Below, piece by piece: positions 2,940 through 4,786 of a stretch of 64,000 nt of DNA. Numbering within the stretch: the first letter of the stretch is position 1; the number at the start of each line of letters is the position of its first letter. A program made the translations under genes and the position numbers. The DNA is taken from the UHGV virus genome UHGV-0326727; one strand, written 5' to 3'. The notes under the pieces were generated by a model. The model saw nothing but the letters and a program-made list of their open reading frames with translations, had not been told where the DNA came from and did not search any database. Source of the stretch: a virus.

Positions 2940-3327
2940 AATGACCTCAAAGTTATATTAAATTTTGTATTACATTGAGTATAAAAATAAGCTATAACAC
3001 CTGACTTGTCAACAGATTTTATAGCTTATTTGGCAGATTTTTTATAAGGCTACTGCCATCCTTCCATACATTACCTTACCTTACCTCACCTGACCTGACC
3101 TGACCCTACCTAACATTACCGTGCCACACCTCACTTAAAAACCCTCTTAAAAGACTCTTAAGTGATGTAAGTCTCATTTTAATGTAGCTGAGACTAACTA
3201 CCCATACCTGACCGAACATTACTAGGCCTTACCAGACACTACAGAACAGGACAGCACCGCACCTTATTAAAAGACCCTGTTTAAAGACCTTTTAAAAAGG
3301 AGCCTCCGAAGAGGCTACCTAGTCAAC
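2940..3327. repeat. ORF-free modular repeat region (5-bp periodic ACC tract plus conserved blocks), copy 1
   Basis: cattaccttaccttacctcacctgacctgacctgaccctacc; shares a 42-bp identical block taagtctcattttaatgtagctgagactaactacccatacct and two 35-40 bp near-identical blocks with 4374-4786. Confidence 0.7.
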
Positions 3328-3768
3328 TTAGAAAGGTTTTCTACGTTGCTTGTTAATGTTAGCTTTCATAGCAGCTAAGTGGTTTTGCTGTTCAATCAGT
3401 CGTGAGCGTTCTTGATGGCTAAGTTCCATAGTGTTCACATTCTCAATAGCTTGAGTGGCTTGCTTTAAAGCTCGACCAATCTTACCAGACATTTTACGTT
3501 TTGCAATAGTTGCTTGATGTTTAGGTTCAACCACACGATAACCAACACCCATTGAAGCAACCAGATAAATCTTCTCTTCTTTAAGAAGCTTCTCAATAAA
3601 CTTCTCAAGTCGGTTTAGACGTGTAAGTGCATAAGCCTTCATTTCATCTTCGTACTTAACAATGTCGCCTTGATAAGTTGGCTTCATAATACCTAAGAAG
3701 GTGTCCATCTCAGAATGTGATACAGTGTCACCGTAACTAAACTTTGCTGCTAATGCTTTTGTATTCAT
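3328..3768 (-). CDS. hypothetical protein
   Basis: 146 aa ORF flanked by the two repeat regions. Confidence 0.4.
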   Translation of the reverse strand: MNTKALAAKFSYGDTVSHSEMDTFLGIMKPTYQGDIVKYEDEMKAYALTRLNRLEKFIEKLLKEEKIYLVASMGVGYRVVEPKHQATIAKRKMSGKIGRALKQATQAIENVNTMELSHQERSRLIEQQNHLAAMKANINKQRRKPF

Positions 3769-3770
3769 AA

Positions 3771-4373
3771 TTAAACGTTACCTTCTGAAATAACTTCTAC
3801 AGAAAAACGACCAAAGCGTGGACGCCAATCACCTACACCACAAAGGTTACCAGCATTTTCCAGAACCATCAGGAGTTCCTCTCGTGTGATTTGCTCTTCA
3901 TCGAACATCAAACCGAACTCTACAGACCAGTCACGGAAGATTGGACGGTAGCTCATAACTCGTGCTGTACCAATCTTAACAGACTTAGCATAGATAAAGT
4001 CTGGATTCTTAGCAAGTTCTTGTGGGTTTGCTGGACAGTTCTTGATAGTCATTGGGAAGACTACATCTGTCAGCATAATGGCTCGGTCAATTACCTTACC
4101 AAGTTTGTTGAGTTTTGCACCAGACTTGATGCAAGCCTCAATCATCTCACCGTTCATAACAAAACCTAGTTGCTCATCGTAGTAACAAGAAGTTACCAGT
4201 TGGCTTTCTGCTAAGAGCGCATAGTCTTCGTCAGTCTTTTTACGTTTACTGGACAGAGACTTGTGATATTTTGTCAGAGGATTTAACGGGTCTGACAACG
4301 TATCGTTATGGCTCAGGAAAGGACGAGTACCAGTGATTTTGATATTTAACAGTTTCATAGCATTTAGCTCCAC
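3771..4373 (-). CDS. hypothetical protein
   Basis: 200 aa ORF flanked by the two repeat regions. Confidence 0.4.
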
Positions 4374-4786
4374 ACTTTAGTTGATTGTTAAGTTGTTTGT
4401 AAAGAACCCTCAACAGAAGACTCTTTAGAAACTTGGTAGATTTTTAACGTGGCTACTACCATCCACCCATACCGTGCCACACCACACCGGACTATACCAT
4501 GCCCAACCCTACTACACCAGACCTTATTAAAAAACCCTCTTAAAGACCTTTTAAAAAGGTAAGTCTCATTTTAATGTAGCTGAGACTAACTACCCATACC
4601 TTACCGCACCGGACATTACCGGACCGCACATCACCGCACCAAACCAAACATCACATTACCTGACCTCACCGCGCCTTACCATACCTCACTTAAAAACCCC
4701 TCTTAAAGATTCTTAAGTGATGCTGGTGAGTACCCGTTGGTTTATGCTGCTCAGTATACTCACCAAATTTTCTATGTCAACAACTT
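4374..4786. repeat. ORF-free modular repeat region, copy 2 (same blocks as 2940-3327 in different order)
   Basis: ccatccacccataccgtgccacaccacaccgg...; contains the same 42-bp block and conserved ccttattaaaa..aaagaccttttaaaaagg and cacttaaaaaccc.tcttaaag blocks. Confidence 0.7.

Follow-up and report, generated by a model that had tools for sequence, protein, structure and literature searches.

A very probable type II VIPR locus of the SUSP1 clade in a Felix O1-like phage genome

The locus and its setting

The virus genome UHGV-0326727 was analysed as one stretch of 64 000 nucleotides (referred to here as the window), and this report concerns region 2984-4780 on its minus strand, which very probably represents, in a Felix O1-like phage, a SUSP1-clade locus of the type II VIPR system (Viral Interference Programmable Repeat). 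Four small guide RNA (vrRNA) genes flank the two VIPR protein genes, vipr and vap1, and the locus is both genuine and complete. In each vrRNA gene, a leader block that forms a hairpin precedes a tract of 11-18 GGYNN pentamers, and a conserved, pseudoknotted 3′ tail of 38 nt follows as the third part. This kind of system and the SUSP1 clade have already been described in a preprint of June 2026 (bioRxiv 10.64898/2026.04.26.720920); the locus adds a confirmed member and not a new kind of system.

According to the preprint, VIPR combines a ~20-kDa RAMP homologue (Vipr) with an accessory protein (Vap) and vrRNAs of ~100 nt. The vrRNAs carry 9-16 YNNGG repeats, in which GGY is conserved and NN hypervariable, followed by an invariant tail with a pseudoknot. 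Double-stranded DNA is read by the NN dinucleotides, one nucleotide being skipped each time, and the outcome is repression of transcription. Escherichia phage SUSP1 serves as the exemplar; its guides target a satellite phage found in E. coli genomes, its vrRNAs co-purify with Vipr, and programmable repression of double-stranded DNA targets was reported. Vipr is described as related to Cas7/Csm3 of CRISPR, and the system has been proposed as a CRISPR forerunner (bioRxiv 10.64898/2026.04.26.720920).

The genes surrounding the locus are all on the minus strand, and in that direction the runs first recorded as 'nnACC' read (GGYNN)n. The order in the sense direction is promoter P1, vr1, vr2, vipr, vap1, terminator, vr3, vr4. 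The genes and gaps are as follows.

5926..4787, minus strand: DNA ligase gene, first in sense order
4786..4374, minus strand: gap B, between the ligase gene and the 200-aa open reading frame
4373..3771, minus strand: 200-aa open reading frame (vipr, as called mechanically)
3768..3328, minus strand: 146-aa open reading frame (vap1)
3327..2940, minus strand: gap A, between the 146-aa and 127-aa open reading frames
2939..2556, minus strand: 127-aa open reading frame, last in sense order

The source phage is a Felix O1-like myovirus (Felixounavirus). Over region 2900-4830, Escherichia phage PHB11 shows 99.6% identity to the window, and more than 150 Felixounavirus records show 90-95%. The locus lies in a neighbourhood of ligase, polymerase and nucleotide-metabolism genes. 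A search of 2500-5200 against Rfam at E <= 1 returned no family. The genome papers on Felix O1 and UAB_Phi87 mention other direct repeats or terminal repeats and do not mention these.

Architecture of the guide RNA genes

An initial annotation of the window had described two gaps free of open reading frames (ORFs) that carry 5-bp periodic ACC runs and bracket a two-gene unit. This description held, with minor corrections to the coordinates. No ORF of at least 40 aa lies wholly within 2940-3327 or 4374-4786 (a 41-aa ORF on the plus strand, 2836-2961, overlaps the first 22 nt of gap A); the runs form four plus-strand tracts (3066-3130, 3204-3263, 4469-4523 and 4596-4685), and these bracket the minus-strand ORFs 3328-3768 and 3771-4373, the second of which most likely begins at ATG 4358. 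The 42-bp block said to be identical in the two gaps has exactly two plus-strand copies (3168-3209 and 4560-4601), each with the AGTCTCA/TGAGACT inverted repeat, and corresponds to the last GGTAT unit plus the T1 tail in two modules. The two further blocks of 35-40 bp that are common to both gaps in differing order are H1 (copies at 3131-3167 and 4686-4722) and H2 (copies at 3264-3300 and 4524-4557). In sense order the four vrRNA genes are composed as follows.

4686..4722, minus strand: H1 leader 5′ of vr1 (CATCACTTAAGAATCTTTAAGAGGGGTTTTTAAGTGA), a long hairpin
4596..4685, minus strand: vr1 tract, 18 GGYNN pentamers
4558..4595, minus strand: vr1 tail, type T1 (GGGTAGTTAGTCTCAGCTACATTAAAATGAGACTTACC), hairpin plus pseudoknot
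4524..4557, minus strand: H2 leader 5′ of vr2 (TTTTTAAAAGGTCTTTAAGAGGGTTTTTTAATAA), with a TTAAAAG/CTTTTAA inverted repeat
4469..4523, minus strand: vr2 tract, 11 pentamers
4431..4468, minus strand: vr2 tail, type T2 (GGGTGGATGGTAGTAGCCACGTTAAAAATCTACC...), T1-like pseudoknot geometry with GUGG:CCAC instead of GUAG:CUAC
3264..3300, minus strand: H2 leader 5′ of vr3
3204..3263, minus strand: vr3 tract, 12 pentamers, with strict GGY in only 6 and TGT or AGT in the others
3166..3203, minus strand: vr3 tail, type T1, the second copy of the 42-bp block
3131..3167, minus strand: H1 leader 5′ of vr4
3066..3130, minus strand: vr4 tract, 13 pentamers
3028..3065, minus strand: vr4 tail, type T3 (GGAAGGATGGCAGTAGCCTTATAAAAAATCTGCC...), pseudoknot AAGG:CCUU and stem GGCAG/CUGCC

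In the 64-kb window, periodic CC/ACC runs are restricted to this locus; the one exception is a marginal run, of AC only, at 43388-43442. When the remaining 44 kb of PHB11 were scanned for CC/GG, no such tracts were found outside the locus. The runs always have one polarity and are far beyond chance. Homologous tracts were cut from 25 related loci (fetched loci carry labels beginning with L), yielding 57 distinct tracts. The tract length is an exact multiple of 5 in 55 of these 57, with a range of 50-95 nt and a commonest value of 55 nt, i.e. 11 units. The motif and periodicity analysis that had been suggested with the annotation gave a conserved GGY and a nearly information-free NN: the composition of 693 pentamers from 55 distinct tracts, read in the sense direction, is G (78%), G (98%), T (89%) or C (11%), N, N, and the two N positions hold 0.07 bits each. 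The tracts diverge strongly among phages that are otherwise 90-99% identical, and the flanking blocks are near-invariant. Since the tracts are hypervariable and the pattern is nevertheless kept, selection acts on the pattern itself and not on a particular sequence.

The three tail types share one structure, in which a pseudoknot helix pairs columns 3-6 with 17-20 and a hairpin pairs columns 9-15 with 28-34. In the pseudoknot helix, T1 has GUAG:CUAC, T2 has GUGG:CCAC and T3 has AAGG:CCUU; in the hairpin, T1 has AGUCUCA/UGAGACU or AAUCGGA/UCCGAUU, and T2 and T3 have GGUAG/CUACC or GGCAG/CUGCC. Among 18 distinct tails, 93% of cells are paired (27-37% when the partners are slid by 1-3 columns), the pseudoknot helix is paired in 100%, and nine of the 11 tail pairs have changed on both sides (three of four in the pseudoknot and six of seven in the hairpin). 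An extension of the T1 hairpin by GGTA/TACC pairing was not supported, as its 3′ side varies without compensation. The T2 tail is found in cassette-bearing phage loci only in the module directly upstream of vipr.

The leader blocks are likewise kept in relatives. H1 has the form CATCACTTAAGA...TTTTTAAGTGA and folds into a 16-bp stem in the minimum-free-energy structure. Variation is confined to the apical loop, which has an insertion of ~22 nt in two of the fetched loci (L010 and L019). The leader hairpins are candidates for a role in 5′-end formation or maturation of the vrRNAs; the searched text of the preprint (bioRxiv 10.64898/2026.04.26.720920) holds no account of how type II vrRNAs are matured.

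Target search

A gene with up to 98% DNA identity to the baseplate-hub gene of the phage is present in 474 of 5426 complete E. coli genomes. A satellite island of ~12 kb is found in 474-482 of the same 5426 genomes, about 9%; it borrows Felix O1-like tail genes (tape-measure and baseplate-hub) and also contains serine recombinases, an adenine methyltransferase or helix-turn-helix (HTH) gene, an HNH gene and small ORFs. At least three insertion sites were seen, namely yciI/tonB, a split DUF72 gene between yecN and yecD, and ymdF/wrbA. Many island copies are interrupted by insertion-sequence elements (L026 4436-16400 and L027-L040, all on E. coli chromosomes).

Guides were compared with 15 diverse islands (326 kb including flanks) by scoring, for 55 guides, what share of the NN positions agreed at each offset. 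With a skip of one nucleotide, 45 of the 55 guides reach an NN match of at least 80% and 16 reach at least 90%. In the controls, the numbers of guides at 80% or above were 0, 2 and 0 for skips of 0, 2 and 3, respectively, and 1 for a shuffled NN order. With different guides and tools, this analysis thus arrives independently at the published targeting rule (a 1-nt skip) and at the satellite targets. The variable NN of each pentamer carries targeting information.

The last unit, usually GGTAT, is fully mismatched in three of the four window guides and half-matched in vr2, and therefore is most likely part of the handle; many guides rise to 0.9-1.0 when it is dropped. The first satellite taken alone gave no convincing target for the window guides. 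Their targets emerged only with the 15 diverse satellites and with the invariant last GGTAT unit dropped. The best matches are listed below in satellite coordinates.

L027 10841-10894, antisense: vr1 target in the tape-measure gene; 21/22 over the 11 units before the terminal GGTAT, 0/300 shuffles
L032 10831-10863, antisense: vr2 target in the tape-measure gene; 17/20 with the last unit dropped, 2% of shuffles
L036 3956-3991, antisense: vr3 target in the DNA N6-adenine methyltransferase gene; 20/22, 0/300 shuffles
L038 7651-7689: vr4 target in a small hypothetical gene; 21/24, 0/300 shuffles

The full vr1 guide scores 22-23/36 at the homologous site in nine of the 15 satellites, and the 11-unit version of vr4 carried by a relative scores 19/20 at the same site with the last unit dropped (0.95 for the full guide). 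In the annotated target genes of vr1, vr2 and vr3, it is the wobble position of the codon that is skipped. No self-target was found in the window, where the best score was 0.68, and exact-pattern scans of IMG/VR with the four window guides gave 0 matches each. Because the four window guides match genes of the satellite island (tape-measure twice, methyltransferase and a small ORF), the job of the locus is likely to be the silencing of a parasitic satellite during infection.

The two proteins

The protein genes are placed as follows.

3771..4358, minus strand: vipr, 195 aa from ATG 4358, with GGAG 9 nt upstream; the mechanical ORF starts at GTG 4373
3328..3768, minus strand: vap1, 146 aa, VIPR accessory protein, immediately downstream of vipr

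The 200-aa ORF matches PDB entry 36pp_D, 'SUSP1 Vipr protein', with E = 1.7e-127. ATG 4358 was taken as the start of vipr because the alignment with PDB 36pp begins at Met6 of the 200-aa ORF; most Vipr homologues in the databases are also 195 aa long. Identity to the SUSP1 protein is 97-98%, and the SUSP1 clade is defined by more than 90% Vipr identity (bioRxiv 10.64898/2026.04.26.720920). An AlphaFold (AF2) model built on 38 homologues has a pLDDT of 94.6, and from the modelled structure Vipr is predicted to be a guide-RNA-binding protein with the CRISPR RAMP fold. Gly170, Gly174 and Gly183 in the C-terminal segment are invariant, which fits a RAMP G-loop, and identity to the solved SUSP1 protein suggests that the RAMP thumb is present as well. 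Homologues of Vipr number 519, are ~190 aa long and are distributed across Actinobacteria, Proteobacteria and phages; none has a Pfam domain.

The 146-aa protein is 98% identical to the product of the gene adjoining vipr in SUSP1. That neighbouring gene, and hence the 146-aa ORF, is taken to be vap1. The protein has no match in Pfam or PDB, and its homologues form only three clusters in 5.8 billion proteins, with nearly none beyond this phage group. In type II systems vap1 is predicted to encode a DNA-binding protein (bioRxiv 10.64898/2026.04.26.720920). Pfam gave no match for either cassette protein, and PHROGs gave 'unknown function' families only. Among six proteins scanned around the locus no Cas family was matched in Pfam or PHROGs; the locus has only the two protein genes. 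There is also no CRISPR array: Tandem Repeats Finder reported no period above 21 in the window, and no repeat-spacer array is present in the window or the locus, with the 5-nt tract as the sole periodic element.

In the Bacillus trp leader RNA, the TRAP protein binds 11 (G/U)AG triplets. The present tracts have the same 5-nt period, a conserved triplet with a 2-nt spacer and 11 as the commonest repeat count, and they stand in leader or trailer positions with flanking hairpins, so that they could be imagined as sites or sponges for a ring-shaped RNA-binding protein oligomer that attenuates downstream genes. We regard this as extremely improbable. The conserved triplet is GGY and not GAG/UAG, no TRAP-like (MtrB) protein is encoded at the locus, the adjacent protein has an unrelated, RAMP-type fold and the spacers carry target-matching information; the published biochemistry is that of DNA targeting and not attenuation (bioRxiv 10.64898/2026.04.26.720920). 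Two other RNA-level candidates, antisense Rho-utilisation sites and boxA/Nus-like motifs in the GGTCTTTAA blocks, were dropped on the grounds that the NN positions are informative and the neighbouring protein is a RAMP.

Promoters and terminator

The following expression signals were assigned.

4753..4780, minus strand: P1, sigma-70-type promoter (TTGACA, 16 nt, TATACT; 11/12 matches), directly after the ligase stop codon
3291..3316, minus strand: intrinsic terminator after vap1 (AGCCTCTTCGGAGGCT followed by a T run that merges into the next H2 block), from a terminator scan
2984..3012, minus strand: P2, site resembling a promoter (TTGACA, 17 nt, TATTTT), assigned to the 127-aa gene downstream, at the 3′ border of the locus

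P1 is likely to drive vr1, vr2, vipr and vap1. Its sequence is kept in both cassette-bearing and cassette-less relatives, and P2 is identical in the latter. In the record of phage ASO1B, Rho-independent terminators are annotated in both intergenic gaps, but in the tract or tail regions and not at 3291..3316. Promoters for the individual vrRNAs were sought by eye in the leader blocks, where only weak sigma-70-like matches were seen (e.g. TTAAAA, 17 nt, TTTAAT), below the threshold of the promoter scan.

Both promoters are overlapped by palindromes. At P1 this is GGTGAGTA (4757-4764) with TACTCACC (4725-4732), read by eye, which covers the -10 hexamer; at P2, the -35 hexamer is framed by an inverted repeat of 19 nt (2985-3003 with 3013-3031). 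The palindromes at P1 and P2 may act as operators. The gene of an HTH regulator is close by, at 2050-2379.

A strong promoter directly upstream, a sense strand that is G-rich and C-poor with a G2N3 pattern and a position among ligase, polymerase and nucleotide-metabolism genes would also suit a transcription-primed origin, in which G-rich non-template tracts form R-loops or two-tier G-quadruplexes. The chance that this explains the locus is minute. Neither R-loops nor G-quadruplexes need a pyrimidine at position 3 or an exact 5-nt register; the number of tracts is 1, 2, 4 or 5 among relatives, unlike what is expected of an essential origin; and the matching of NN to satellite genes and the covariation in the tails would be left unexplained.

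Elsewhere in the window, ~1.5 kb at 47350-48850 has no ORFs of at least 50 aa and holds many short tandem repeats, mostly with an 11-bp period (e.g. 47443-47467, 47671-47796 and 48072-48160). Going by its offset, this stretch lies where the PHB11 record starts and ends, and the genome termini or a cluster of early promoters may be located in it.

Relatives without the protein genes and satellites with guides

The initial annotation had predicted that the bracketed genes would prove to be an insertion/deletion cassette, and this was borne out: phages humlepung, UAB_Phi87 and FO1a have a single gap between the ligase gene and the 127-aa gene and are without the two genes. In humlepung and UAB_Phi87 the gap is ~560 bp. 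That of humlepung (L003 2411-2971) reads P1, H1, tract, T1, H2, tract, T3, P2 and thus holds two modules, one clean module was recovered from UAB_Phi87 (L005) in the scans, and the Felix O1-type phage FO1a (L043 1353-1634) has a 282-bp gap with a single module. Vipr at an identity of at least 90% (tblastn) is encoded in 118 Ounavirinae records, always once per record, and the vrRNA gap is present in about 231 records; about half of the related phages are without vipr and vap, yet keep one or two vrRNAs. A role of the repeats as packaging signals was dropped, as the locus is internal in UAB_Phi87, the ends of which have been mapped.

These relatives bear on the suggestion, made with the initial annotation, that the repeats mark recombination or mobility boundaries. 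The PeSL (promoter-early stem-loop) cassettes of T4-type phages, reportedly described by Arbiol et al. in 2010, are said to shuffle optional genes, and there too repeated intergenic regulatory modules flank optional genes, which recombination can add or remove. The repeats considered here might in the same way be primarily DNA-level boundaries, in which case the pentamer tracts would serve no purpose in themselves: close relatives differ in whether they have the cassette, the empty site resembles the product of recombination between a T1 tail and a leader, a gap can hold from 1 to 3 modules, and the record of phage wV8 annotates the elements as 58-bp direct repeats (DR_4). As a primary role this is nevertheless improbable. 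Substrates for recombination need identity and not a GGY/NN pattern, whereas the tracts are hypervariable in NN, conserved in GGY and a multiple of 5 in length; the NN dinucleotides match satellite genes in one specific register only; the tails show covariation of the RNA type; and the modules persist at the empty site. What stands of the suggestion is the behaviour of the genes as an optional cassette. The repeats themselves are guide RNA genes and, in contrast to PeSL modules, functional in their own right, with recombination as a side effect; loss of the cassette by recombination between the repeated T1 tail and leader blocks is plausible as a by-product and not as their function.

In phages without vipr, the vrRNA genes apparently still carry guides of the satellite-matching kind. 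The two humlepung guides match satellite genes at 19/20 and 18/20 (scores that are reached by <=0.5% of shuffles), and no Vipr or Vap homologue was found in the whole humlepung genome by tblastn or profile search. Guides of other vipr-less loci score 0.83-0.97, similar to vipr-linked guides; the single guide of FO1a has no match in the sampled E. coli satellites.

None of the 15 sampled satellites encodes Vipr. Five of them carry a vrRNA-like tract of their own, one each and each on the minus strand (L027 5182-5261, L028 3678-3757, L037 4992-5071, L039 4408-4477 and L040 4473-4552). By eye, these five genes have a sigma-70-type promoter upstream (TTGACG, 17 nt, TATAAT in three), a ~55-nt leader and a T2-like tail, followed by a terminator-like hairpin with a T run; two versions of the tail stem occur, GGTAG/CTACC and TGTCG/CGACT. 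Satellite-borne vrRNAs are noted in the preprint (bioRxiv 10.64898/2026.04.26.720920), and no discussion of phage-borne orphan arrays was found in the searched portion of its text. It is possible, albeit on the doubtful side, that the satellite-matching vrRNAs of vipr-less phages are traded or used in trans on the Vipr of a co-infecting relative or helper, or act as decoys that soak up the Vipr of a rival.

Discussion

Among known systems, the type II VIPR of SUSP1 is the closest. Vipr is 97-98% identical and the adjacent protein, taken as Vap1, 98% identical; in both, the vrRNAs consist of GGY/NN pentamers with a pseudoknotted tail and are read in a register with a 1-nt skip; the locus occupies the same slot between the DNA ligase and 127-aa genes of an Ounavirinae phage; and the targets belong to the same class, a satellite island whose tape-measure and baseplate-hub genes are Felix O1-like. 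The differences lie in the arrangement, with two vrRNA genes upstream and two downstream of the protein genes here and one upstream and three downstream in SUSP1 (L013), in agreement with the preprint, in the guide sequences, in the 18 units of vr1 and in the host genus, which is Felixounavirus and not Suspvirus.

By analogy with SUSP1, vrRNAs of ~100 nt would be bound by Vipr, a small RAMP-fold protein. Vipr would keep GGY out of base pairing and present the NN dinucleotides, a step that is proposed but not directly shown in the preprint. The NN dinucleotides would then read double-stranded DNA in a gapped register (NN, skip 1, NN and so on), with the skipped base usually at the codon wobble position; binding would repress transcription, and Vap1 would enhance the effect. 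The initial annotation had also offered arrays of protein-binding sites as an explanation of the repeats, and in spirit this survives, each pentamer being a unit of protein-bound RNA, but not as double-stranded DNA elements for protein binding or curvature.

A number of points weigh against the assignment or against parts of it. The mechanism given for this phage is carried over from SUSP1 on 98% protein identity and would apply here to that extent, and its source (bioRxiv 10.64898/2026.04.26.720920) is a preprint, the details of which may change. No window guide has a perfect target in the 15 sampled satellites or IMG/VR, the vr2 match is marginal relative to shuffled controls (2%) and the skipped base of vr4 falls on codon position 2 of the annotated frame. 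At 18 units, vr1 is outside the 9-16 of the preprint, and only an 11-unit stretch near its 3′ end matches the target; the excess length and partial match suggest trimming to a fixed length or a recent 5′ expansion. The genes vr3 and vr4 lie beyond the terminator, and the promoter scan gave no strong promoter for them. The single-sequence model of Vap1 has a pLDDT of 71.6, and a fold search with it gave no assignable fold.

The likeness of VIPR to class 1 CRISPR-Cas systems, in which Cas7, Csm3 or Cmr4 assemble on a crRNA, consists in a small protein on a guide with a variable part and a structured handle, and in positions excluded from pairing at a fixed period. In VIPR, by contrast, specificity resides in two of every five nucleotides and is read with a 1-nt skip, and the system is phage-encoded and reported to silence, not cut.

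VIPR represents a newly reported form of RNA-guided DNA recognition, which relies on a gapped 2-in-5 code and a minimal RAMP protein. Sequence alone suffices to show that Felix O1-like phages commonly carry it, and in modular form. Felix O1-like phages are used in typing and biocontrol of Salmonella and E. coli. For such uses, the locus tells which phages are armed against a satellite that resides in ~9% of complete E. coli genomes, and flags those that carry guides and are without vipr.

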